64,000 nt of DNA from Thermodesulfobacteriota bacterium. Its GTDB lineage: Bacteria; Desulfobacterota_D; UBA1144; Nemesobacterales; UBA2774. The notes beneath the pieces are model-generated. The model was given only the letters and a program-made list of their open reading frames with translations. It had not been told where the DNA came from and searched no databases. Numbering within the stretch: the stretch's first letter is position 1; every line of letters starts with the position of its first letter. This document shows positions 29,153-45,359 of the stretch, one piece after another. The position numbers were made by a program, and so were the translations under genes. Where the stretch lies: the NCBI GenBank assembly GCA_965216785.1, contig OZ244197.1, positions 2,784,001 through 2,848,000 of the forward strand. Reading direction: 5' to 3'.

Positions 29153-29977
29153 TTAAGCTGCCGCTTTTCTTCTGCGCAGGGCAAAGAAACTGATAATCCC
29201 TAAAACGCCCGCGGTAGCTATAAGTCCCCATTCGCTCATTGTCGGTATGACCTTAGGGGCCATCCTTAAAGATATGGCACAAAATTTAAGCGCAATAGTA
29301 TCACCAATTCTAGGAAACGCCGGGAATTGGAAAGTACCTGCCGTGTCTTGAAATTCACTTATTCCAGTAAGTGCTAATCCAGGGCCTACTTCTACTAATT
29401 CAGTGAAACCGTCACTAAAAGGATCGGCTGATAATGCGCCTGATTGATTGCCGCCTGAGATTAAAAGTATTTGGACAAGCTGTGAGCCCGCTTCAAATTG
29501 CACAGGATCCGTGACGTACATCTGGCTCAAAGGATCAAATTCGGAGCAGGCGGAATCGATGATGGGATTGTCCTTGTCAACATTATTGTATCTGAAGCTT
29601 CCCGCCGCAAAAGCTGATGAATTGTCGGTATCCCAACTGCAGGTAATATCATCTGAACCCGAAGAGTCTGTGAAGCGGCTCCATATACCAAGCTGACATG
29701 AATCAGGGAAACATGTTTCATTTACAATCTCATTCCACGATCCGGGGCTCGGAGCATTAAACGGGTTAGGGTTACCATCCGCAAAAATACCGCAAGAAAT
29801 CAGCTCGTAATCACCCGGAGCTCCCGATCCGGTCTCAATTACACCTGAGAGTAACCCTCCGTTGAAATCGGCATCTTGAGTCGAGTTAACGTCCTCAATC
29901 AGCACATTTGCCTGAGATACGCTTACCGCTACAAGCGCAATTAAAACAAATACCGGTAAAAGTAATAGTTTTTTCAT
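29153..29977 (-). CDS. IPTL-CTERM sorting-domain surface protein
   Basis: GGAGGG RBS; signal peptide MKKLLLLP...SQA; C-terminal VIPTMSEWGLIATAGVLGIISFFALRRRKAAA. Confidence 0.88.
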   Translation of the reverse strand: MKKLLLLPVFVLIALVAVSVSQANVLIEDVNSTQDADFNGGLLSGVIETGSGAPGDYELISCGIFADGNPNPFNAPSPGSWNEIVNETCFPDSCQLGIWSRFTDSSGSDDITCSWDTDNSSAFAAGSFRYNNVDKDNPIIDSACSEFDPLSQMYVTDPVQFEAGSQLVQILLISGGNQSGALSADPFSDGFTELVEVGPGLALTGISEFQDTAGTFQFPAFPRIGDTIALKFCAISLRMAPKVIPTMSEWGLIATAGVLGIISFFALRRRKAAA

Positions 29978-30143
29978 ACCATCCCTCCATAAATGTTTGC
30001 TGTCAATATTAACACATTTTGGTAAATATCCATACATATTTATTAAGCATGTGAGTAAACGTAGATGTATGTTTGGAATGATACAAGAGTGGGTAAACGT
30101 AATGTAATTCTGTTATTAAGCTACCGGTCTATGGATTTGAAGT

Positions 30144-30220: not shown

Positions 30221-30435
30221 ACAAATTTGGAATTAATTATTACGGACTGAGAATATTACCACAAAGCTAACGGGAGACAAATATACTCAACCCCTCACCT
30301 TATAAATATACCGATTATCTTAAGATTAAACTTGCTATTTAAATAATCCGAGTAAAATAATAGGTAATCCAGTTATGCGACTTGGCACCGCATAGAGGAC
30401 AGATAACAGAATCGATTGCTCAGCCAAAGGTTAAA

Positions 30436-30930
30436 ATGAACAAGGCTCTCTTGGTGCTGGTAATATTGATAGGAGTTATGCTCGGCCTCGGAGGTTTTAC
30501 TTTTTACTACGGGGAAGGCCATTCCTATTTAAGTAAAAACCCAGAAGCTTGCCTTAACTGCCACATCATGAGACCTCAGTTCGATTCCTGGCAGAAAGCG
30601 AGCCACCACACAGCGGCAACCTGCGTTCAGTGCCATCTGCCTCAAAGCTCTGCATACAAGTATATATCTAAAGCCGAGAACGGCTTTAATCACTCAAAGG
30701 CTTTTACGCTTCAGAATTTTGACGAGCCGATAAAAATTACTGAAAAAAACAGCCGTATACTGCAGCAAAACTGCGTATATTGCCATAGCGCTATCACAGA
30801 AAATCTTACACACGGGAGCACTACAAACGCCGATGGCCTTAGCTGTGTTCATTGCCACAGGACGGTAGGGCATGGAGAACCATTGGGTCTGGGCGGCCCC
30901 CTGCGAAAGGAAGAGAAAGGAGGAATATAA
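30436..30930 (+). CDS. nrfH: Cytochrome c nitrite reductase small subunit NrfH
   Basis: N-terminal TM helix; four heme motifs CLNCHIM, CVQCH, CVYCH, CVHCH; directly upstream of nrfA. Confidence 0.92.
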
Positions 30931-30931
30931 A

Positions 30932-32374
30932 ATGAGCGGAGCTTCGTCAATACTTAAATCCAAAACAGGGATAGTGGTTATTGTAATAATTGTTGCGGCT
31001 ATTAGTGCTGTCATAACCGCGCTGCTGGTAAACATAATTCAAAGAAAGGCGGAGAGTAAAAACGGTTATGTAAGGCTCGTTGAAGTCACCGAGGACGATA
31101 CTGATCCTGAGAAATGGAAGACTAACTGGCCCAAGCAGTACGACTTGTATAAGAAAACCTCAATTGCAACGCGCACACGGTTCGGCGGTCACGGAGGTAG
31201 CGAGGCACTCCCCGAGCAGAAGATCGAGAGGGACCCATGGCTAAAGCGTATGTTCAAGGGCTACGCGTTCTCGATAGACTACCGTGACAGACGCGGTCAT
31301 GCCTATATGCTGGAAGACCAGGAGAACACAGAGCGTCAGTCGAAACCACAGACGGGATCATGTCTTCACTGCCACGCATCGATAATGCCTCTTTACAGAG
31401 AGCTTGGAAACGGCGATGCCGACGCGGGGTTTGAAGAGTCATATAAATACTCATACGCAGACCTTAATCAAATGTTAAAAGACTCGGGGAACAACCACCC
31501 AGTATCGTGTGTAGACTGCCACGACCCTGAATCGATGGAGATTCGTGTTACCAGACCCGGATTTATCCAGGGTATTCAGGCACTTGCGGAATCTGACGCG
31601 CCGACGCCTCATCTGCCCTCGATCGAGCAATGGAGAGAGGGACCGAGGTCGGCTCCTTACGACCCTAACGTAGACGCAACGCGCACTGAGATGCGCTCTT
31701 ACGCATGCGCGCAGTGCCACGTGGAGTATTACTGCGCGGGCAATATGAAGCTGACCTTCCCGTGGGGTAAAGGGCTCAAAGCAGAGGAAGTGGAAGAATT
31801 TTGGGACGATATAACGTTTAGTGACGGGCAGCAGTTCTTTGACTACACGCACAAAGAGAGCGGTGCAAAGATACTTAAAGCGCAGCACCCTGAGTTTGAG
31901 CTCTGGAGCCAGGGCATCCATGCCCGAAGCGGGGTATCATGTGCCGACTGTCATATGCCTTATATGAGGGACGGCGCAAGCAAGGTATCGGACCACTGGG
32001 TACGTAGCCCGCTGTTGAACGTGAACCGTGCCTGCCAGACATGTCACCGCTTTTCAGAGGAGGAAATCAAAGAGCGTGTGGACGGCATACAGCAGCGCAA
32101 CTTCGACCTCCTTCAGCGAGCGGGAGCCGCGCTTATGGAGCAGCTGGACGCCATAAATCAGGCAAGGGCAGAAGGCGCCACTGATGAGGACCTGAAAGAA
32201 GCCCTCGAGCTTCAGCGAAAAGCGCAGTGGCGGCTAGATTTTATTGCCGCAGAGAACTCAATGGGCTTTCACGCTCCGCAGGAAGCGGCCCGTGTGCTTG
32301 GCGAGGCTATTGATTACGCGTGGCAGGGGACTGTAGCTGCTTCGACTTGGCAGGATAAAACAGCACAGCAGTAA
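30932..32374 (+). CDS. nrfA: Ammonia-forming cytochrome c nitrite reductase NrfA (heme-1 CXXCH variant)
   Basis: [14 protein letters not shown]; five hemes [32 protein letters not shown]; KAQHPEFE; [10 protein letters not shown]. Confidence 0.93.
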
Positions 32375-33883: not shown

Positions 33884-35395
33884 TCATTCCCTAACCTTTT
33901 TTAAAGAGTATAAAATTACACGTGTGTTTCTACTAACCTCAAATTCTCTTTCCTCCGTTATGCGGTAAAGGCTATTCTTATGTTGATATGAGGATTTCTG
34001 GCGGTTAACAAAATTCTTTTCGCCCAGAACGACCCAAAAATGATCAATATTCTCGAGTGCGCAATATTTAAACAGCATTGAAGGGTCTATTTTATGTTTA
34101 GGAAGTTTGCAGTATTTAAAATTTCCTCTATTGTAAAAATTAAAGCTGGGAAGGTTTAAAAAAGAGATTAGCACAATAGAGGTTTTGCCATAATCTTTTT
34201 CCTTGATATATGAGCCTACTTCTCTCCAATCTTTCCTGGATGGTTTTGTATGGTGAGTGTATAAACCGGATGAAATCAATATTAAGAATGCAATTAGAAT
34301 TATACCGAGAGGCACAACTTTATTTAGTTTTGTTAAAATCAGCGCCGTCAAAATATAAAATGCCGGAGCTGAGCATATTAAATACCGATCAAGGTACATA
34401 GGCTTTATAACCTCCGACATTATCAGAACTAATAGTATTGGAACAAACAGCCAAAGCACTACAAGCAAAGTCTCGCTTTTAATTTTCCAGATCGTCTTAT
34501 ATCCCGAGAAAAATTGTTTAAGCGATTTTAACCATTTCTTTTTCCCGGTAAATAATATGTAGGTTAGTGTTCCTATCAATAAAAATAGGACAGCAATGTA
34601 AAAAGTTGTAGAATCATGAGCTCCGAACGCCGGACTCATAAACCTTTTGATTGTGTTAATCGGTGCCCACGGCCCGGGAGAAGGTATCCAGTTTGGACCG
34701 CCTCCACCGATAGCTTTATTGCTGAAAGAATATATAAACCTTGGGGCAATACCGAGTAATATGATGAACTGACTAAAAACCCATTTAAGAATGATTGGTC
34801 TAAGCGATTTAATTTTGATTAGTACGTATAGATTTTGTGCGGCGATGATGAAAACGCCGAAGTCGTGGCTATAATAGAGCAGGATTGTTGATAATATATA
34901 CAGCGCGGCATAAAAATATGATTTTGAGCGTAAAAACTGGATATAGAAATAAAATGAGACCAGTGTCAGAAATTCAAAAAGACTGTAATATCTAAGCTCC
35001 TGGGAAAAGTGAATTTGGAACACAGACACGGACATAAAAAATGCGCTAATCACCCCGATCTTTCTGTCAAATAAAGTCTTTCCTACAATATAGATCAATA
35101 CAATCGAAAATACTCCGAAAATGACTGATAAAGAACGGGCCGCGACTTCAGAATACCCGAAATTCCCGATCCAGAAGTGCGCAAGAACTAGGTAAAGCGG
35201 GGGTCTCTTACCTGTTAGTATTGAGCTTAAACTTTCATGCGCGACCTCAAGCGTGATAATCTCATCGTACCAGTAAAACTGCTCGCTAAGCCCATGTACT
35301 CTCAAGAAAGTGCCGACAAGCAAAACAAAAAAGAGAAGATAAAAGATCTTACCATTGCTCTTAAAAAAAGAAGCTGTAGCGTTAATAAGTTTCAA
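33884..35395 (-). CDS. GT-C membrane glycosyltransferase (PMT/ArnT, GT39/GT83-like)
   Basis: FLRVHGL..WYDE, PPLY, ARSLSVIFG, FSQELRYYSL, RYLI; polytopic membrane protein. Confidence 0.85.
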   Translation of the reverse strand: MKLINATASFFKSNGKIFYLLFFVLLVGTFLRVHGLSEQFYWYDEIITLEVAHESLSSILTGKRPPLYLVLAHFWIGNFGYSEVAARSLSVIFGVFSIVLIYIVGKTLFDRKIGVISAFFMSVSVFQIHFSQELRYYSLFEFLTLVSFYFYIQFLRSKSYFYAALYILSTILLYYSHDFGVFIIAAQNLYVLIKIKSLRPIILKWVFSQFIILLGIAPRFIYSFSNKAIGGGGPNWIPSPGPWAPINTIKRFMSPAFGAHDSTTFYIAVLFLLIGTLTYILFTGKKKWLKSLKQFFSGYKTIWKIKSETLLVVLWLFVPILLVLIMSEVIKPMYLDRYLICSAPAFYILTALILTKLNKVVPLGIILIAFLILISSGLYTHHTKPSRKDWREVGSYIKEKDYGKTSIVLISFLNLPSFNFYNRGNFKYCKLPKHKIDPSMLFKYCALENIDHFWVVLGEKNFVNRQKSSYQHKNSLYRITEEREFEVSRNTRVILYSLKKVRE

Positions 35396-36351
35396 GAAGT
35401 CCTCCCGTTTACTATGAGAGCTCTCGCCTCGAATAACCCGCCCAGAAGACCGGGGACGATCCGTGTTACAGCAAACACTAGTATTGAGTAAGCAAACGCA
35501 CTGCTATCGCTAACGCCGAAAGTGCCCAGGAGAATTATAAATGAAGCCTCTCTTAAGCCCATGCCGGATATTGATATAGGGATCATCGTTACGAGTACCA
35601 CAAGGGACCTGATCCAGGCAATTGTTATAATCGATATATCAATGTCGATCGACTTTAGCAGAAGAAAAAATACAACTACGTTAATTAGCTGTGAAGCAAG
35701 CGAAATTTCGATCATAAATAAAAGAGTTTTATAAGATAGCTTTCCAAGACCTGATAAGCTGTCAGCGAATCTATTCAATTTTTGAGATTCATATACGCTA
35801 TTCACTAAACTCAATAACCATTTTATGATCCTTTGATTTCTGTCTATGAATAAGAGTAAACAAAAACATGTAAGGCTGATTAAGATAAAAATCATGAACA
35901 GAACGTATATGCTTAAATCTTTAGGAAAACTGAGTATCCAGAAAAATAGGCCTACAAGACACAGGGCCACAGTCGCAAATACTCTTTCCAGAGCGAGGGA
36001 AATGAACGCTTCTGAGAGTTTATTGTCTTTTCTCGACAACTTGTAAAACTTAATAATTCCTCCCGTCACGTTCCCGCCGGGCAGAAAAAGTCCGTAAAAA
36101 ATTGTGCTTAGATTAATCTCAAACGCTTGAAATGTTGATATGTAGAGTCCATTCAGGGCTGAGAAGTATTTTAGCCTGTAAGAAGTTACAGCCCAAGCTA
36201 GAAGAGTAAAAATGACAGCTGGAATCACATAATGTAGTTTGGCGGTTATGAGGGAGTTAAGGACATCCTGAATGTTGATTTTAGTGAAGAGGAATACTAT
36301 TATTGCTATAGCAACTGTAAACCTTAGGATAGTCCAGATTCTCTTGCTCAT
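35392..36351 (-). CDS. Flippase-like membrane protein (lysylphosphatidylglycerol synthase TM/UPF0104)
   Basis: LFLPGGNVTGG, LERVF, MIPISISGMGLREASF. Confidence 0.85.
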   Translation of the reverse strand: MSKRIWTILRFTVAIAIIVFLFTKINIQDVLNSLITAKLHYVIPAVIFTLLAWAVTSYRLKYFSALNGLYISTFQAFEINLSTIFYGLFLPGGNVTGGIIKFYKLSRKDNKLSEAFISLALERVFATVALCLVGLFFWILSFPKDLSIYVLFMIFILISLTCFCLLLFIDRNQRIIKWLLSLVNSVYESQKLNRFADSLSGLGKLSYKTLLFMIEISLASQLINVVVFFLLLKSIDIDISIITIAWIRSLVVLVTMIPISISGMGLREASFIILLGTFGVSDSSAFAYSILVFAVTRIVPGLLGGLFEARALIVNGRTS

Positions 36352-36440
36352 TGAATATCATGCTGCCTTATGAGTACTTTGTACTGAAAACAATCAGCTT
36401 CATGGTTCACACAGTCTAACCCTGAAAACTTCTTTATCTG

Positions 36441-37655
36441 TTATAGATGAAAAGCCTTGGTTCCTTTTAGAGCGCCAGATTGATCATATCCGAGAAGATT
36501 TAAGATTGAGGGTACGATATCTATGGTTTGAATTTCTTCACTATAGGCATTGTATTTATCATTCAAAATAATAAAAGTGCCCTTCTCACTGTCATTATGT
36601 GGCAGGTAACCGTGGTTCCCCCTATGTGCTGGGTTGAATAACCTGCTCCTTGCCTGTTCATTTGTAAGACCTAGATAAAAATTCCCAATCGGATGGTAAA
36701 AATCATTAGGAAAAAAGATAGTGCCGGGGTTTAAGACGTAGTAGTATTCACCGAAGCGGTCATCTTCAAATTTGATATTGAATTTTTCCATATCTTGCCG
36801 GCTTAGTAAGTTTCCATCTTTATTTTTCGAGAGATAATCGAGCATCTTTTCCTTTGCACTATCCGAATGAAACCAGAACCTGGCTTTAGGTGCTTCTATG
36901 TAATATGTAATCTCCGTATCTTTAATTCCCATTTCTTGAATTTTTTGTTTTATATTAACCGTATTTTTCACCTGCTCCATACCATGCTCGGACAAGATCA
37001 TTAAAGTTATCCCGTTTTTGTCACATTCTGAATGCAGAAATTTAATATAGCTATCAATCTTATTGTGTGAATCGATCATTATTTGCTTATCGTTAACGTA
37101 CCAGTGTGAGATTGTATCGATTGCATGAGTCTCAATTAACTCAAATCTAAGGTCTTTGTTAAATAACTCCGGGCTTATCTTGTCTAATTTGCGAAGCTCT
37201 CGATTGTATATATAACTGCTATGTCTTTGTCCGATCATGTTAAATAAAGTGTCATGTCCGCTTAGTGTGAGATAGTTGTTTAGAACTTTCTTATCATATC
37301 TAGTCTTGAGGATTTCGAAGCGCTTACGTCTCCAATAGGGAACGGCAGCCAAATTATATGATCCTGTAAGCATATGAATGAAGCATTGAGTGGTTGTAGT
37401 TACAATATCGGGCATGTAGTCAATCGAGGAGTTTGAGTGAGAAATGTCATTTGACTTTAACCGAACCTGACAAATGCCATGTTCGTGAGGATAAAGTCCG
37501 GTAAGAATAGTAGGGTCAAGGTCAACTTCGGGAAAGTTGGTAATCCTGGTCCAAGGGAATTCTTCCATTAGGCTGTATAAATATGGAGTATGTTCATCAT
37601 CAATTCTTCTGTGGTCCAGCGCGCTAACAAAGAAAACCATTAATTTGTCTATCAT
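36441..37655 (-). CDS. Alkaline phosphatase superfamily (NPP/phosphodiesterase-like) protein, paralogue 3
   Basis: TILTGLYPHEHGI, IDTISHW, ILSEHGM, RGNHGY, DIVPSILNLLG; 404 aa. Confidence 0.82.
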   Translation of the reverse strand: MIDKLMVFFVSALDHRRIDDEHTPYLYSLMEEFPWTRITNFPEVDLDPTILTGLYPHEHGICQVRLKSNDISHSNSSIDYMPDIVTTTTQCFIHMLTGSYNLAAVPYWRRKRFEILKTRYDKKVLNNYLTLSGHDTLFNMIGQRHSSYIYNRELRKLDKISPELFNKDLRFELIETHAIDTISHWYVNDKQIMIDSHNKIDSYIKFLHSECDKNGITLMILSEHGMEQVKNTVNIKQKIQEMGIKDTEITYYIEAPKARFWFHSDSAKEKMLDYLSKNKDGNLLSRQDMEKFNIKFEDDRFGEYYYVLNPGTIFFPNDFYHPIGNFYLGLTNEQARSRLFNPAHRGNHGYLPHNDSEKGTFIILNDKYNAYSEEIQTIDIVPSILNLLGYDQSGALKGTKAFHL

Positions 37656-37677
37656 TCTATATCTCCATCAAAAACCG

Positions 37678-38892
37678 CTAAAAATCAAAAGCGCTTTTAC
37701 CCTTTAATGGCTCGGGTTTATTGTAGCCTAATAAGTTAAGAATTGTTGGAGCAAAATCTATAGTTTCAATTTCTTTTTCACTCGTTTTATAACTGTTATC
37801 AAGAAGAATAAGGAACCCTTTTTCACATTCATTATAGGGCATATAGCCGTGGTATCCCCTGTATAGAGGGCTGCGGAACCTGCTCCTCTGCTGTTTTTCT
37901 GTTAGTCCCAGGTATAGGTTTGCTATGGGATGGTAATAATCATTCGGGAAAAAGATATTCCCCGGGTTTAATACAAAATAGTATTCACCGAAACTGCCGT
38001 CCTCGAATTTAATATTGTATTCATGCATGTCTCGATAGCTTAGCAGCACTCCATCAGGATTATTAGAGAGATAATCGAGCATCTTCTCCTTTGCGCTGCC
38101 CGAATGAAACCAGAATCTCGCCTTAGGGGCTTCAACAAAGTAAGTCATTTCGTTGTTTCTAATTCCCATCTCATGAATTTTTTGTTTTATATTGACTGTG
38201 TTTTTCACAACCTCCATGCCATGATCGGCTAAGATCATCAGTGTTACGCCTCTTCTTTCGCTTTCGGAATGCAGGAATTCAATATAACTGTCCACCTTTT
38301 TATACGAATCGATCATGAGTTGCTGATTATCCATAAACCAGTGCTCCGTTCTATCGAGACCATAGTCCTCGAATAACTCAAATCTAAGATCGCTACTAAA
38401 TGAGCTAGGTACTATTTGATCGAGTTTATCCAGCTCTGGATTGAAAATGAAATTACAATTACCTTCTCCTAGTATGTTAAAGATAGTGTCGTAACCGTTT
38501 ATTTTAAGATACGTCCTAACTTCTTTTTTAAGGTATCTTGTCTTAAATATTTCAAAGCGCTTACGTCTCCAGTATGGAACCGCAGCCAAATTATATGATC
38601 CTGTAAGCATATGAATGAAGCATTGAGTTGTAGTCGTAACTATGTCGGGCAAGTAATCAAAAGCGGATTTTGTAATTAAATTTTCTTTTGACTTCAAACG
38701 AACCTGCCAAATTCCATGCTCGTCTGGATAACGACCGGTCAATAAAGTCGGGATAAGATCTGATTCGGGAATGTTATTAATTTTGGTCCAAGGATATTTC
38801 TCCATTATGCTGTATAAATAAGGAGTATGGTGTTGATTGACTCTTCTCAGATCAAGTGAACTTCCAAAGAAAATCAATAATTTTTCTATCAT
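37678..38892 (-). CDS. Alkaline phosphatase superfamily protein, paralogue 2
   Basis: TLLTGRYPDEHGIW, LDRTEHW, ILADHGM, RGYHGY, DFAPTILNLLG; 404 aa. Confidence 0.82.
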   Translation of the reverse strand: MIEKLLIFFGSSLDLRRVNQHHTPYLYSIMEKYPWTKINNIPESDLIPTLLTGRYPDEHGIWQVRLKSKENLITKSAFDYLPDIVTTTTQCFIHMLTGSYNLAAVPYWRRKRFEIFKTRYLKKEVRTYLKINGYDTIFNILGEGNCNFIFNPELDKLDQIVPSSFSSDLRFELFEDYGLDRTEHWFMDNQQLMIDSYKKVDSYIEFLHSESERRGVTLMILADHGMEVVKNTVNIKQKIHEMGIRNNEMTYFVEAPKARFWFHSGSAKEKMLDYLSNNPDGVLLSYRDMHEYNIKFEDGSFGEYYFVLNPGNIFFPNDYYHPIANLYLGLTEKQQRSRFRSPLYRGYHGYMPYNECEKGFLILLDNSYKTSEKEIETIDFAPTILNLLGYNKPEPLKGKSAFDF

Positions 38893-38913
38893 TCGTAGTA
38901 CCAGTCAATAAAA

Positions 38914-40128
38914 TTAAAGATGATAAGCACTATTGCCCTTTAATGAATCCGGTTTCTGATAACCTAATAAGTTAAGAACAGTTGGTGCTACATCTATTAT
39001 TTCAATTTCTTTTCTGTTTGGTTCATAGTCCTCATCAAGGAGCATAACAAAGCCTTTCTCGCACTCGTTATGGGGAAGATGCCCATGATACGATCTATAG
39101 ACGGGGCTCTTTAGCCTGCTCCTCATGTTTTGGTTTGTGAGTCCCAAGTATATGTTCGCAAGCGGGTGGTGAAAATCGGTCGGAAAGAATATCGTACCGG
39201 GATTTGTTATGAAATAATATTCTCCATAGCTGTCGTTGTTGAATTTTATATTGTATCTGTGTAACTCTTCAAAATGGAGTAACTTTCCTTTGTCCAGTTC
39301 CGAAAGATAGCTCAACATCTTTTCCCTGGCGCTGTCCGTGTGAAACCAGAACCTTGCCTTAGAAGCCTCAATTAGATAGCTAATTTCATGTTTTTGGATT
39401 CCCAATTCCTTTATTGTAGCCGCTATATCGATTGTATCTTTGACCTCAGCATGGCCATGATCACTCAATATCATGACTGAAATACCCCTTCTCTCACATT
39501 GTCCATGCATGTTTTTTATACAGTTATCGATCTTTTTATAAGCGTCGATCATCATATCTTCGTCATCAATATTCCAATGCGTAAAATGATCTGTCCCGTG
39601 CCCATCAAAAACCTCAAGCTTCTTATTTTTAATAAATTGAGGGTTGATCTCGCCTATCATTATGTGAAACCTGTCCTCATAGTGATAGTTACAGTTTTTG
39701 TCTCCAAGGATTTTAAAGATAGAATCTACTCCGTTAAAAGTGAACTGAGCGTTTGAGTTTCTCCACCAGTACTTGGTTTTATAAATATCAAAACGCCTTC
39801 GTCTCCAGTCAGGTACGCCCGCAAGGTCAAATTTTCCGTTAACAGCGTGTATGAAACATTGAAAGGTTGTTGAGAATATGTCAGGTAGATAATCCCATAT
39901 TTTTTTCGTATCAAAATCACGGTCATCTTTTAGGCGTGCCTGCCACATACCGTGCTCGTTGGGATAACAGCCCGACCACATCGTAGTCTTCATATCTACG
40001 TCCGGTATCGTGTTTATCTTAATCATCGGATATTTTCCTGTCAGGCTGTACAGATATGGTGTAATATCTGTAGTGACTTTCCTATAATCCATGCCACTAA
40101 AATACAGAATTATTAACTTATCAATCAT
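38914..40128 (-). CDS. Alkaline phosphatase superfamily protein, paralogue 1
   Basis: TMWSGCYPNEHGMW, TDHFTHW, ILSDHGH, RSYHGH, DVAPTVLNLLG; 404 aa. Confidence 0.82.
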   Translation of the reverse strand: MIDKLIILYFSGMDYRKVTTDITPYLYSLTGKYPMIKINTIPDVDMKTTMWSGCYPNEHGMWQARLKDDRDFDTKKIWDYLPDIFSTTFQCFIHAVNGKFDLAGVPDWRRRRFDIYKTKYWWRNSNAQFTFNGVDSIFKILGDKNCNYHYEDRFHIMIGEINPQFIKNKKLEVFDGHGTDHFTHWNIDDEDMMIDAYKKIDNCIKNMHGQCERRGISVMILSDHGHAEVKDTIDIAATIKELGIQKHEISYLIEASKARFWFHTDSAREKMLSYLSELDKGKLLHFEELHRYNIKFNNDSYGEYYFITNPGTIFFPTDFHHPLANIYLGLTNQNMRSRLKSPVYRSYHGHLPHNECEKGFVMLLDEDYEPNRKEIEIIDVAPTVLNLLGYQKPDSLKGNSAYHL

Positions 40129-40188
40129 AGCATTTCCTATTAAAAACCGGTTTTATATTCTTACTAAATACATTTAGCACAAGCCAGT

Positions 40189-41733
40189 TTAATGAAAGAT
40201 TGGTAATCTTGATATTACCTCAGCTTCCTCTTTATTTCTCGTACTGTTATCCCAATTAAGCTCCTTTGCCATAACTTCTGAATATTGCTTTAAATTAGTC
40301 CTTATCTCCTCAAAATCTAAGTCTAAGCGACGGAAAACAATGTCTGATAGCTTCCGGGCCATTTCTTCCCTTATGGCAAAAACAATTTGAGAGCTTACTA
40401 TAGAGTTTTTCTTATTCTCCATATTAGAGTTATCCTGAAGATTGCTTATGTTACCTGAGTATGGAGTAGCTAATCCGGTCAGAGAAGACCTAAACGTTTT
40501 TCCCATTTTGGTCATAATCAAATCTACACATTCCTCAGCCACTATTCTGGCTTCTGTGTATTTGGAGCCTCTTGCGGAGAAAAGTCCGCCGGGACCGTTT
40601 TCCTTTTCATGATCAAGTAGGTGAGTTCTTACACCTATTTTAGGTTTTCCATCATTTACTGAATAGGTGGGCACATAACCGCCGTACACAAATTCAACAT
40701 CGTCAGTCTTTAAAGAAGCGGCCGGATAGCAGGTATTGATATCATCCAGAAAAGAGCCTATTTCCTCGAGAGTTTCTTTAAAATTGTCCGGATCGTCATT
40801 TGAAGGCAGATATTCCGTCCCAATTAATGACTTGCCCTTCCAGGGTGTGATAAATAGATAACGGGATTTCTTTGAGAATATGCTTTGTATAGTAGGGTTT
40901 TTTATTTTCGTATTTAGTCCGAGTGCATACCCTTTTGTTAAATCTCTTCTAATTGCGAGATTGAATGCTTTTAAATTCCCCGAGCTCGCCAATGAAGAGT
41001 TTATCCCTGTACGAGAGGGTATATAGTTTAACCATGGCCCTGATGAGTTTACGGTAAATTTTGCACGAATCTCGAATTCATCTCTAGTTATTATGTCTCT
41101 GACAAAAGCTCCCTTTACTCTGTTATTTTTTATATTTAAGCCTAGGGCTTGCACATAGTTGGCTAAATTAGCGCCTTCTTCAAATGCTGAAGCTGCAATT
41201 GTGAGGCTAAAATGCTCAGAGTTTGACAGCTGGCAGTCGGTGAATATAATTCCGCCGCTGAGGTTATTTTTTTCTATATCGGGAATCATGTCTATGCACT
41301 CTTCTCTTGTGATAACCCGGTTATTGAATTTCTCTAAACCGCTGTGCTTTGATGCTCCAAGACCTATAGCTAAGAGATCATAAACTTTTAAAGCTGCGTC
41401 GAAGGATTTTTTTGTGAAAAAGTTGCTGTTATAAAGCGGTATTATTACCGGCATTGGTCTTACAAGATGTGGGGCGAGCTTCATTAAGATTCTCTGTTCC
41501 TTCATGAACCTCCTGGTACTGCTGAAATCAAGATATTGGATGTGTCTAAAGCCTCCGTGAATTATCCTGAGTGAATTGGAAGACGTGGCGCCCCCAAAGT
41601 CTCCTTTATCAATTAGTGCTACGGAGAGTCCCCTGAGCGCAGCGTCCCAAGCAATAAAGAGTCCGAGTATGCCTCCTCCTATAATAAGAATGTCATACTC
41701 TCTGTCTTTTAATTGTTCTAATCGTCTCTTCAT
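40189..41733 (-). CDS. GlpD-like FAD-dependent oxidoreductase (glycerol-3-phosphate dehydrogenase/oxidase family)
   Basis: IIGGGILG, DAALRGLSVALIDKGDFGGATSSNSLRIIHGG, APHLVRP, AIREEMARKLSDIVFRR. Confidence 0.85.
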   Translation of the reverse strand: MKRRLEQLKDREYDILIIGGGILGLFIAWDAALRGLSVALIDKGDFGGATSSNSLRIIHGGFRHIQYLDFSSTRRFMKEQRILMKLAPHLVRPMPVIIPLYNSNFFTKKSFDAALKVYDLLAIGLGASKHSGLEKFNNRVITREECIDMIPDIEKNNLSGGIIFTDCQLSNSEHFSLTIAASAFEEGANLANYVQALGLNIKNNRVKGAFVRDIITRDEFEIRAKFTVNSSGPWLNYIPSRTGINSSLASSGNLKAFNLAIRRDLTKGYALGLNTKIKNPTIQSIFSKKSRYLFITPWKGKSLIGTEYLPSNDDPDNFKETLEEIGSFLDDINTCYPAASLKTDDVEFVYGGYVPTYSVNDGKPKIGVRTHLLDHEKENGPGGLFSARGSKYTEARIVAEECVDLIMTKMGKTFRSSLTGLATPYSGNISNLQDNSNMENKKNSIVSSQIVFAIREEMARKLSDIVFRRLDLDFEEIRTNLKQYSEVMAKELNWDNSTRNKEEAEVISRLPIFH

Positions 41734-41736
41734 TTC

Positions 41737-42534
41737 TCATTTAACCACTTTTACTATAATATGGTGGCCGTAGGATTTTAAAAACCTTTTCGGAATCAAA
41801 TTAAATGCCGGGACGAAAAGTTTATTATACAAGACAGTTTGAATTTTATTGTCCCTATCGGCTTTAATCGGAAAGCGGTCGGTTGTAATACGGACCTCCG
41901 AAAAAGAGCTTAAAAGACTCTTAAGCTCTTCAGTCTTATGTTGTTTGAAAACCGGCGCTTCTTCTCTATATGATTTTGAGTTAAATGTTTTGAATAAAAG
42001 ATTCAGCCATGAATCTGAGTTATATAATACGAGATACGCTTCATGCTCCTTTTTGAGTACACGGTGTATTTCTTGAATCATTTTCTCGGGATTAGGAGTA
42101 TAAGGAATAGATGAGATAGCAAATACTACATCAAAACTCTCATCTTCATACTCCATGTACTCTCCGTCTGTTCTATAGACTTGCGCTTTTAAGTTGCGGA
42201 TTTCCACATTCTTTCTCGACATCTCAACAGCAAAATCAGATATATCTATGCCAGTAACAATAGCCCCGGAGTTTGCTAATTTCACAAGCTCGTTTCCAAG
42301 TCCACAGCCGATTTCCAAAATCCTTTTTCCCTCTAAGCTTCTATAGTCAATGGCTCCATTTAGGTAACCGTGCTTTTTCTCATAATAAGCCTTAATGTCA
42401 TTAAAATAATCGATAGTTCCTGGTGGATGTTTAGAAACCTGATACTCGTGCGGGTTTTTATTCCAATACTCACGTATATGCTCTATTACCGTTAATCCCG
42501 CTGAGTCAATATTACTGATTGAAGCTTTATTCAT
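41737..42534 (-). CDS. Class I SAM-dependent methyltransferase
   Basis: ILEIGCGLG, GIDIS, ESFDVV, EIHRVLK. Confidence 0.88.
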   Translation of the reverse strand: MNKASISNIDSAGLTVIEHIREYWNKNPHEYQVSKHPPGTIDYFNDIKAYYEKKHGYLNGAIDYRSLEGKRILEIGCGLGNELVKLANSGAIVTGIDISDFAVEMSRKNVEIRNLKAQVYRTDGEYMEYEDESFDVVFAISSIPYTPNPEKMIQEIHRVLKKEHEAYLVLYNSDSWLNLLFKTFNSKSYREEAPVFKQHKTEELKSLLSSFSEVRITTDRFPIKADRDNKIQTVLYNKLFVPAFNLIPKRFLKSYGHHIIVKVVK

Positions 42535-43739
42535 TAGAGACCCCTTTGCATGATCGCATTGAGAATTTGTCTTGTCTTTTCCATTTTGTCTTCCGAACTG
42601 TAGTTTTTCTCAAAACATTTCCTGGAATTGAGAGCAAGCTTGCTTGCATAGGAAGAATCTTCTATGACATCTATAATTCCCTGAGCGACAGCTTCAGGGC
42701 AAGTATTAACTAAAACTGCTGTGTCTTCATTTAAAACTTGAGTATGTGCCACGATATTTGTGGCGACTATAGGCTTTCCAGCTCCAAGGTAGTCATAAAT
42801 CTTCAACGGTGGATTGTTGCCGATTGTTCGCGTTGATAAGAGAACATCGGCGATTTTCATATATTGAGGTATTTCATCAATAGGAAGATTGCCAGTAAAA
42901 TTAACGCTAGATGCTATTCCAAGTTTAGAGGCCAATTCCTTTAAGCCCTTAATTTGGTTTTTATTCCCTCCAGCGAGAACAAACACGGTATCGTTACGTG
43001 ATTTAATCACTATCTGCGCAGCCGCCAGTAAAAGCTCGAGTCCCTGATAACGCTCAAAAGTTCCTGAGTATAGTACGACTTTGCTACCGTTAAGCTCTGT
43101 ATGAAAAAGTTTGAATGAGTCGGAGGTTTCTTCGTCTGCAGATTCAAAGTCATAATGCTGAAAATTCTCTATAGTAACTCTTGGAATTTTATTGTTCAGA
43201 CCCATAACATATGTGTCCAAATCTTCAGAGATCGTTATAACGCCCTTACAGGAATTAACAACATACTTTTCTAGAAGTTCAAAAGCATATATCAGACTTC
43301 TGTGTCGTTCATATCCGAAGTTTTTCATCGCTTGAGGAAGTGATGAATGAAAGTCATAGAGGTGTCTGACTTTAAATATCCTGGAGAACAAAGCTCCAAA
43401 ATAACTTGCTTCTTCGTGAGTATGTATAAGGTCATATTCTTTGCTTAATAGTAGGCGAAACGCTTTAAAAAAAATGAATACGTCGAGGAAGATTTTTTTT
43501 AATGAAGGGCCGACCGGAACTTGTTTTATAAACGGTATATTGACCGTGCGAAAAGTCTTAAGCCCTGGCAGCCCAATATCTTCCCCTACATGATAGGTTA
43601 CTAAATCCACCTCATGGCCGAGTTTGGATAAGTCTTCCAATCTGGATCTGACTGATATAGGGGTTCCTCGCGAAGAGAAGAAAGGTAGGCAAGCTAGCAT
43701 CAAAATTTTTAAACTACCGTTTGTATTAGAATCTGACAT
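42534..43739 (-). CDS. Glycosyltransferase family 4
   Basis: PFFSSRGTPISV, HTHEEA, YSGTFERYQG, PLKIYDYLGAGKPIVAT. Confidence 0.9.
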   Translation of the reverse strand: MSDSNTNGSLKILMLACLPFFSSRGTPISVRSRLEDLSKLGHEVDLVTYHVGEDIGLPGLKTFRTVNIPFIKQVPVGPSLKKIFLDVFIFFKAFRLLLSKEYDLIHTHEEASYFGALFSRIFKVRHLYDFHSSLPQAMKNFGYERHRSLIYAFELLEKYVVNSCKGVITISEDLDTYVMGLNNKIPRVTIENFQHYDFESADEETSDSFKLFHTELNGSKVVLYSGTFERYQGLELLLAAAQIVIKSRNDTVFVLAGGNKNQIKGLKELASKLGIASSVNFTGNLPIDEIPQYMKIADVLLSTRTIGNNPPLKIYDYLGAGKPIVATNIVAHTQVLNEDTAVLVNTCPEAVAQGIIDVIEDSSYASKLALNSRKCFEKNYSSEDKMEKTRQILNAIMQRGL

Positions 43740-43746
43740 TTAATAT

Positions 43747-44727
43747 TTATAGTTTTGTTTTAGAATCTATGATTTCTCTGATTACATAAGTTGGTTTATC
43801 TACAGACTCATAATAGGTCCTGACTACAAGCTCGCCGATAAGGCCGATAGAGCAAAGCTGGACTCCGAATATTATAAGGAGCGCTCCTAGTAGCAAAAGC
43901 GGTCTATCGCTTAGGTGATAACCGTAGAAGATTTTTAGGAACGAGAGGTAACCAGCAATTATTATACCCAGTAGGAAAGACACGATACCGAAGAGACCGA
44001 ATATCTGAATAGGTTTTGTAGAATAGCCCAACAGGAATTTTACAGCAATCAGGTCCAGTATCACTCTTATAGTTCTCGTGAGACTGTAACTGGAGGTGCC
44101 GGATATCCTGGGGGCATGATTGACTTCAATTTCGCTCACAGATACGCCCATCCAGCTGGCAACGGCAGGTATGAATCTGTGCATTTCACCGTAGAGTTTA
44201 ATGTTCTTTATTACATCACATCTATAGGCCTTAAGCGAGCATCCGTAATCATGAAGTTTTACGCCGGTTAACATGGAGATTATGTAATTAGCGATCTGAG
44301 AAGGTAGACGTCGAGTAAGATAGTCATCTGCCCTTTTCTTGCGCCATCCGCTTACAATATCGTATCCGTTATCAAGCTCCTGAATCAGTTTTTCTATATC
44401 GGCAGGATCGTTTTGCAAATCAGCGTCCATAGTAATGATGATATTTCCTTTTGCCAAATCGAAACCAGCCGAAAAGGCCGAGGTTTGTCCGAAATTACGG
44501 CGTAAACGTATAATTTTCAATTTTTCGTAGCTCGTTGAGAGCTTTTTCATAACTTCAAAACTGTCGTCTCTGCTTCCATCATCAATCATTATAATTTCGT
44601 AAGTTTGCCCAGTTTTAGTTAATACCTCATTTAATTTAGTCATCAGTGGTAAAATGTTATCTGATTCATTGAATACAGGTATTACGATCGATAGTTCTAA
44701 GTCGTTTTTTTCTTTAGAAGTTGCCAC
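43747..44727 (-). CDS. GT2 polyprenyl-phosphate glycosyltransferase (GtrB/ArnC-like)
   Basis: SIVIPVFNE, DDGSRD, RNFGQ, MDADLQNDPAD, LHDYGCSLKAY, HRFIP; two C-terminal TM helices. Confidence 0.9.
   Translation of the reverse strand: MATSKEKNDLELSIVIPVFNESDNILPLMTKLNEVLTKTGQTYEIIMIDDGSRDDSFEVMKKLSTSYEKLKIIRLRRNFGQTSAFSAGFDLAKGNIIITMDADLQNDPADIEKLIQELDNGYDIVSGWRKKRADDYLTRRLPSQIANYIISMLTGVKLHDYGCSLKAYRCDVIKNIKLYGEMHRFIPAVASWMGVSVSEIEVNHAPRISGTSSYSLTRTIRVILDLIAVKFLLGYSTKPIQIFGLFGIVSFLLGIIIAGYLSFLKIFYGYHLSDRPLLLLGALLIIFGVQLCSIGLIGELVVRTYYESVDKPTYVIREIIDSKTKL

Positions 44728-45282: not shown

Positions 45283-45359
<77 letters not shown>

Follow-up and report, generated by a model that had tools for sequence, protein, structure and literature searches.

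Three tandem NPP-fold paralogues that appear to lack a conserved nucleophile, encoded beside a flippase-like gene in a Thermodesulfobacteriota genome

Sequence and predicted fold of the three paralogues

The DNA analysed here is a 64,000-nucleotide stretch from a Thermodesulfobacteriota bacterium (assembly GCA_965216785.1, contig OZ244197.1, positions 2,784,001 to 2,848,000), which we call the window. On its minus strand, three adjacent genes encode the NPP-fold proteins p1, p2 and p3, whose residues are numbered throughout as in p1:

38914..40128, minus strand: p1, NPP-fold protein (S11, D43, D45, D180, H184, D223, H224, H348); PF01663, 31 bits; AlphaFold2 (AF2) model
37678..38892, minus strand: p2, NPP-fold paralogue (S11, E43, D45, D223); PF01663, 45.5 bits
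36441..37655, minus strand: p3, NPP-fold paralogue (S11, E43, D45, E223); PF01663, 55.5 bits

Each gene is 1215 bp long and encodes 404 aa, and the intergenic gaps are 21 and 22 bp, as an earlier note, made by a model from the letters of this DNA, had described. The three proteins align pairwise without gaps at 46–64% identity; they are the sole members of their own family in the 3.1 Mb source genome, and their closest named relatives come from Dadabacteria/Thermodesulfobacteriota metagenome-assembled genomes. Since strand 1 begins at residue 5 and the stop-to-stop frames span just 408–412 codons, a signal peptide is excluded for all three, in agreement with the earlier note. That note was also right about Ser in place of the first-strand metal-ligand Asp (Ser11 in p1, p2 and p3), about an acidic residue nine positions ahead of TG/SG (D43 in p1, E43 in p2 and p3) and about SEHG in p3. 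The motifs D180-x3-H184, S/A-D/E223-H224-G and H348-G occur as it listed them, whereas the TG that it assigned to all three is SG in p1. The strict length constraint proposed for the triplet did not hold up, since 404 aa exactly is found in 39/100 aligned family proteins and 403–410 aa in 84/100 (the 100 include the three window proteins).

All three proteins exceed the PF01663 gathering cut-off of 23 bits, no NCBIfam family scored over its cut-off for any of them, and the Atlas returned PF01663 clusters alone for p2. The AF2 model of p1 has a predicted local distance difference test (pLDDT) score of 94.4, and its top Foldseek match is Xac NPP (E 2e-14). Comparison of this model by VIA gave ENPP6 at Z 30.1 (root-mean-square deviation (rmsd) 3.2, 330 aligned), Xac NPP at Z 27.7, PhnA at Z 24.2 (rmsd 3.1, 310 aligned) and the best sulfatase at Z 18.2. 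Going by sequence and by the predicted structure of p1, the three proteins belong to the NPP-like branch of the alkaline phosphatase (AP) superfamily, with an NPP core and a cap. The motif of the S1 formylglycine sulfatases, C/S-x-P-x-R, was found in none of the aligned family sequences, and the Pfam scan of the window proteins returned no PF00884 match. Neither a membrane anchor, nor export, nor a Thr nucleophile of the LtaS/EptA/MdoB type was seen in p1, p2 or p3. A search for fused forms of the family among longer proteins gave one unrelated partial match alone, which is weak evidence.

Nucleophile position and metal ligands across the family

In Xac NPP, metal 2 is bound by D54/T90/D257/H258 and metal 1 by D210/H214/H363. 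The NPP-matching metal motifs (D180, H184, H348) are visible in HMMER alignments. We carried out a census of 204 family members, pooled from three homologue searches (proteins 370–470 aa long and locus copies no shorter than 370 aa, with 9 duplicates removed and 2 outgroups set aside); a separate alignment contained 97 of the 111 homologues from one search, with 12 fragments and two window proteins left out, and column changes were counted on a tree computed after removal of the trait columns. Across the 204, the metal-1 triad is kept as D180 in 202, H184 in 192 and H348 in 202, and the metal-2 side as H224 in 202, D/E223 in 194 and D/E45 in 198. Other near-invariant residues are R109 (204), D318 (204), Q90 (203), R338 (200), D14 (200) and R259 (197). 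The first-strand Asp is present in just 9/204, position 11 being mostly P (78) or S (74), with R in 10 and V in 9, and a conserved Ser/Thr nucleophile is missing, which bears out the non-canonical NPP-fold subfamily suspected in the earlier note.

Two registers are candidates for locating the NPP nucleophile. Counting nine residues back from TG puts the NPP Thr on position 43, as does gapless matching to G-Y-S-S-type sister proteins; HMMER places P42-x-x-E45-L46 on NPP P-S-x-T-F (P-S-L-T-F), with the conserved acid over Thr, and puts the ENPP4 Thr on the sister Gly equivalent to 45. Because p1, p2 and p3 are acidic at both positions and 61/204 members have no Ser, Thr or Cys at residues 41–47, the apparent loss of the nucleophile survives either way. 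As far as sequence alignment can tell, neither register shows the conserved Ser/Thr and Asp at canonical positions that the earlier note had weighed against its own proposal; nor, as it had also allowed for, did the family prove to be already characterised in open-licence PubMed Central (PMC) and bioRxiv literature, searches of which found no account of a p1-type family or of a nucleophile-free NPP branch.

Position 43 carries E in 62 members, S in 55, D in 35, T in 31 and N in 15, with six further residues besides (Ser/Thr in 86/204), and it changes 41 times on the tree against 41.5 for the median column, with 24 changes of class. A mix of S/T/D/N/E is typical of a helix cap, and the one seen here is probably not that of a nucleophile; a catalytic carboxylate at 43 is doubtful as well, because the column is as variable as the average one. 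The conserved acid is that at position 45 (D in 96, E in 102), with 3 class changes on the tree. D/E45 likely replaces the lost first-strand Asp as a metal-2 ligand, and we infer that the supply of carboxylates to metal 2 is divided among residues 11, 45 and 223; D223 is missing from 7/9 of the D11 members, in two separate clades. The single-metal enzyme suggested in the earlier note is possible and less likely, as H224, D/E223 and D/E45 would provide the second ligand set.

A carboxylate nucleophile, which the same note had placed at 43, would form an acyl-phosphate or acyl-sulfate on D/E45 or, in the window's clade, on D/E43 as its intermediate. Apart from the HMMER register, such a route would draw on the acidic residue at 43 in 77/79 members of that clade, where it is a derived state. 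However, position 43 is labile family-wide, D and E alternate freely at 45, and the sister clade has Gly/Ser/Ala at the 45-equivalent with the metal ligands all kept, so we regard this chemistry as quite improbable. A HAD-like DxD nucleophile at 43 was rejected. The counts also bear on whether this is an ordinary Ser/Thr enzyme family in which some clades, including p1–p3, have decayed. Ser/Thr at 43 in 49/64 GTDB-locus copies and a hydroxyl residue as the parsimony root state at that position fit such decay; the repeated swapping of S/T, D, N and others inside tight clades does not, and the acidic-43 members hold D180/H184/H224/H348 in 97/97, which leaves decay with the slimmest chance of the readings considered here. 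Altered metal-1 ligands (N180 with C348; R184) or divergent pairs were seen in members at L045, L049, L006:15916 and L053/L055, and these copies may be inactive or specialised.

Genomic context was surveyed at 58 GTDB loci, among which many of those from Phycisphaeraceae are kin. The family is single-copy in 50/58, which argues against the obligate hetero-oligomer or heterotrimer of the earlier note; optional hetero-oligomers remain compatible. The same three paralogues occur in matching order at locus L001, with ~70% identity between each pair of counterparts. The dN/dS check proposed earlier gave 0.09–0.11 for each paralogue against its L001 counterpart, with dS near saturation, and p1, p2 and p3 are each under purifying selection. 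A recent duplication was rejected, synonymous sites being near or at saturation. The triplet fits an old duplication with divided substrate specificity, each of the three probably decorating a sugar position of its own. In G044, where the family is likewise present in three copies, these sites carry other residues.

The sister set comprised 52 full-length proteins, drawn from the best 150 of 3590 representatives together with two earlier matches. D11 is present in 50/52 and the D-H/D-H/H metal set in 50/52, and the 45-equivalent is acidic in 0/52, the reverse of the p1 family. The residue nine ahead of TG is S in 21, F in 19, G in 4, Y in 4, T in 2 and A in 2, and 29/52 have no Ser/Thr nucleophile. 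Since the sister proteins too are without a fixed nucleophile, its loss would be older and wider than the triplet. The model of sister protein P0268 has the NPP fold, and its helix begins at residue 45, eight ahead of TG. Two sister proteins are fused to glycosyltransferase 2 (GT2) domains. P0308 (827 aa) joins a sister-type domain to GT2, and P0254 (1208 aa) joins two PF01663 stretches to GT2; the residue following the A-F motif is Glu in the former and Gln in the latter.

Sister-clade genes also have a partner of ~410 aa that belongs to no Pfam or NCBIfam family and bears the motif GGFGRGEG...D-Y-D, which we take to be Pol-beta nucleotidyltransferase-like. It occurs in 58/80 sister loci (L120-L199; e.g. 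L120:3842-5137, L144:7206-8408), in 45 of them within 150 bp, and is fused once to a sister-clade gene (L173:249-2867); its best PDB match, streptomycin adenylyltransferase, is weak (E 0.016). The sister loci, some of which are near-duplicates, are rich in glycosyltransferases and hold PfkB and P-loop kinases. The sister NPP-fold gene and this partner may form an undescribed two-enzyme glycan-modification system. The partner was found neither in the source genome nor in p1-family loci, nor in 5 carrier genomes, the last searched without a positive control.

Gene neighbourhood and the flippase link

The minus-strand run that contains the triplet is ordered GT2, GT4, methyltransferase, GlpD-like, p1, p2, p3, PF03706 protein, PMT_2 GT-C. 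Besides the triplet, it consists of the following genes:

43747..44727, minus strand: GT2, ArnC/PgfS-like polyprenyl-phosphate glycosyltransferase, under cut-offs
42534..43739, minus strand: GT4 glycosyltransferase
41737..42534, minus strand: class I S-adenosylmethionine (SAM) methyltransferase
40189..41733, minus strand: GlpD-like flavin adenine dinucleotide (FAD) oxidoreductase, under NCBIfam equivalog cut-offs
35392..36351, minus strand: PF03706 LPG_synthase_TM flippase-like membrane protein, the conserved downstream partner
33884..35395, minus strand: PMT_2 (GT-C-type) membrane glycosyltransferase

This run looks like an accessory glycosylation cassette, because it is GC-poor (0.38–0.39 in window 34001–44000 versus 0.41–0.51 elsewhere), a tRNA-Arg gene (45283–45359) adjoins it, and the family is carried by 8/120 genomes of the phylum. 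Two genomes of the same genus (80–82% complete) show no member. Elsewhere in the window, 29153..30037 (minus strand) encodes a secreted-looking protein with what we take to be an IPTL-CTERM-like sorting tail, a possible acceptor class for the GT-C protein, and 30382..32374 (plus strand) holds two multihaem cytochrome c genes that, by their motifs, presumably resemble NrfH/NrfA.

The 58 loci span Dadabacteria, Desulfobacterota, Gemmatimonadota, Planctomycetota, Eisenbacteria, Proteobacteria, Acidobacteriota and Verrucomicrobiota. A PF03706 gene starts at most 250 bp downstream in 39/55 loci with room for one, and is in the locus in 44/58; the partner forms a distinct PF03706 subfamily with invariant Arg residues. 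All eight carriers in the phylum have this subfamily (8/8), and 2 more genomes that lack the p1 family have it in a cluster with another PF01663 protein. At L116:6905-13974 and L117:7251-14050 (G048, G052), the cluster around the subfamily contains GT4, a methyltransferase, a protein with a lactate-racemase N-terminal domain and another PF01663 protein, 553 aa long. Co-presence at genome level is uninformative, PF03706 being found in 61/61 genomes of the control phylum, and the AP-versus-flippase mirror tree of 40 pairs is ambiguous (Pearson 0.71, Spearman 0.20) and carries no weight. Either a frameshift or an assembly error divides the G059 flippase gene (L081:6248-7242), and likewise the AP copies of L055 and L056, between reading frames. 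Recurrent neighbours among the 58 loci are GT4 (9), GT2 (8), GlpD-like (7), methyltransferase (6), GT-C (6), Gfo/Idh/MocA (6) and NAD epimerase (5), and an unnamed ~540-aa neighbour with a partial GT-C-like profile overlap occurs in 13/58; a gene making a nucleoside diphosphate (NDP) donor was not among the recurrent neighbour clusters.

The close linkage to PF03706, taken with the loss of two canonical catalytic residues, would also suit a pseudo-enzyme or scaffold protein whose role is to bind an anionic lipid-linked substrate and pass it on to the flippase. We consider this improbable, given that conservation over 28–70% identity is 94–100% for four His/Asp ligands and for several Arg, Asp and Gln residues, and that stand-alone family copies occur. 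A further alternative comes from HexSDF, where, according to the accessible text of PMC10128005, glycosyltransferase, modifier and PF03706 are laid out as here. By analogy with HexD in that system, a mononuclear Zn de-N-acylase would hold Zn by Asp-His-His, use D/E45 as base and H224 as acid, and de-acylate a lipid-linked amino sugar. In its favour, the triad is complete and H224 is retained more often than an acidic residue at 223 (202 against 194), but the many invariant Arg suggest polyanionic substrates. To our knowledge there is no amidase in the NPP fold, which also counts against this very improbable chemistry.

Proposed function and comparison with known systems

The usual route to periplasmic glycosylation has three steps, served by a GT2 enzyme that makes a polyprenyl-phosphate sugar, by a flippase-like protein and by a GT-C protein. 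Since p1–p3 are signal-less and tied to a flippase, the simplest arrangement is a modifier that acts on the lipid-linked sugar before flipping; since both metal sites are present and a protein nucleophile is not, an outside hydroxyl, from the acceptor sugar or water, would attack directly. Our preferred reading, to which we give a little less than an even chance, is that p1–p3 are cytoplasmic enzymes that pass an anionic group from a nucleotide donor straight onto a lipid-linked glycan before the glycan is flipped. They would work at the inner membrane face on a hydroxyl of the lipid-linked sugar, ahead of PF03706. Metal 1 (D180/H184/H348) would bind the donor phosphate, metal 2 would be rebuilt with D/E45 for the first-strand Asp, beside D/E223 and H224, and the acceptor hydroxyl would take the place of the missing Thr alkoxide in a single displacement with no covalent intermediate. 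The invariant Arg residues would hold the anionic donor and carrier, the adjacent PF03706 protein would flip the decorated lipid-linked sugar outward, and the GT-C protein would hand the product to an outer acceptor. The transferase role raised in the earlier note is plausible.

Within this transfer reading, sulfate from 3'-phosphoadenosine 5'-phosphosulfate (PAPS) is a tentative possibility, and it leads because of the analogy with Agl30 and Agl31 of Halobacterium. According to the available part of PMC11980604, sulfation of a dolichol-linked glycan at two of its positions depends on these AP-core proteins, a third paralogue having shown no effect; Agl7 of Haloferax, annotated as a sulfatase, contributes to sulfation according to the portion available of PMC3892788. 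A phosphate-linked group from an NDP donor is in itself rather unlikely, and phosphoryl chemistry stays close behind sulfate because the metal-1 site is of NPP type and kinases (PfkB, uridine-kinase-like, thymidylate-kinase-like) lie near sister genes. The test of PAPS supply was partly positive. The source genome has an adenosine 5'-phosphosulfate (APS) kinase within a glycan gene cluster (C1:2316220-2321349), among whose neighbours we read putative carbamoyltransferase, RmlD-like and GT2 genes. Outside the phylum, APS kinase is present in 36/41 carriers, hand-picked from the 58 loci with L001-L006 and several close kin left out, and in 9/9 Gemmatimonadota carriers versus 27/60 sampled genomes of that phylum.

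A number of observations weigh against the reading of pre-flip transfer, or against sulfate in particular. APS kinase was not found in 5/41 carriers, its baselines are high (92/120 in the phylum of the window, 27/40 in the order of G124) with kin that are not independent, and the source genome has three classical sulfotransferases that could account for it. ATP sulfurylase was not found in the source genome, where PF01747 is absent and the single PF01507 match looks CysH-like by reading. An NPP-like model with an intact metal-1 site favours phosphoryl chemistry, and Agl30/31 resemble sulfatases where the p1 model resembles NPPs. The two candidate registers, with 43 or 45 over the NPP Thr, disagree, and members lacking both D11 and D223 occur (3 in the census; also P0175, P0184 and P0192). 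An adjacent flippase is missing in 16/55 loci, with none in the fetched DNA for 13 of those, and many of the 58 loci have no glycosyltransferase nearby, as the GT4, GT2 and GT-C counts show. Flipping by PF03706 is itself largely inferred, and HexF is dispensable for its glycolipid in what is accessible of PMC10128005.

The NPP fold and intact metal-1 site would also serve a hydrolase, in which a metal-bound water cleaves a phosphoester or anhydride (a lipid-linked sugar phosphate, glycerophosphoglycolipid or NDP-sugar) as pre-flip maturation. Such an enzyme would make a donor gene unnecessary, and GlpD-like genes lie in the window and, as counted above, in 7/58 loci. Hydrolysis accounts less well for three paralogues each under purifying selection, and where AP-core proteins from clusters for lipid-linked glycans have been tested, they are needed to add a group, not to remove one, so far as the available Agl sources go; we hold it to be unlikely.

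Returning to direct transfer, we also entertain a wider and doubtful proposition: that the p1 family and its sister clades, among 1127 representatives at E<=1e-10, are a large, unannotated NPP-fold radiation that gave up the covalent nucleophile by which the AP superfamily is defined, in favour of direct two-metal transfer. In the p1 branch, a metal ligand would then have shifted off strand 1 onto what was once the nucleophile helix; the branch would have become a bacterial sulfotransferase unrelated to the P-loop type and coupled to a dedicated flippase, its paralogues sulfating different positions of a lipid-linked glycan.

The chief findings are that the nucleophile is lost across the family, that a metal ligand appears to have relocated and that the gene is linked to a flippase; the occurrence as a triplet of equal lengths is minor. 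The AP superfamily is a main model of enzyme evolution, and a widespread natural branch with metal ligands and no nucleophile would allow a direct test of single displacement on the AP scaffold with small, soluble and well-modelled proteins. A function would follow for many proteins labelled 'alkaline phosphatase family protein', and a substrate class for one PF03706 subfamily, with an anionic surface glycan route in several little-cultured phyla.

Among known systems, the NPP family (Xac NPP 2GSN, ENPP4/5/6/7) is closest to p1 in structure, sharing the whole fold and cap (Z 27.7–30.1), the metal-1 Asp/His/His, the metal-2 DH and Pfam scores over the cut-off. In contrast, p1–p3 have no first-strand Asp, no conserved Thr and no signal peptide, their TP motif-to-TG spacing is four residues shorter, and identity is 13–15%. 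PhnA (1EI6) has, like p1, a cytoplasmic NPP-like fold of similar size, but it is catabolic, its nucleophile is Thr and identity is 12%. LtaS, EptA, MCR and MdoB are AP-fold transferases decorating envelope polymers, with Z 15–17 to p1; they sit outside the cytoplasm on a membrane anchor, depend on Thr and have retained metal 2 instead of metal 1. HexSDF and HpnIJKL modules resemble the p1 loci in combining a modifier enzyme with a glycosyltransferase and an MprF-like flippase domain. The HpnIJKL-type modifier is a deacetylase of another fold than p1, and so is HexD, in the part of PMC10128005 available. AP superfamily members reviewed in the accessible text of PMC3693508 use Ser, Thr or formylglycine nucleophiles. 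Agl30/Agl31 and Agl7 are, like p1–p3, AP-superfamily proteins of glycan clusters, several per cluster (PMC11980604; PMC3892788, each as available); apart from their sulfatase-like nearest structures, they are likened here without sequence comparison, and the evidence on them is genetic and mass-spectrometric. By inference, p1–p3 may work more like Agl30/31, or like a cytoplasmic counterpart of EptA/LtaS.

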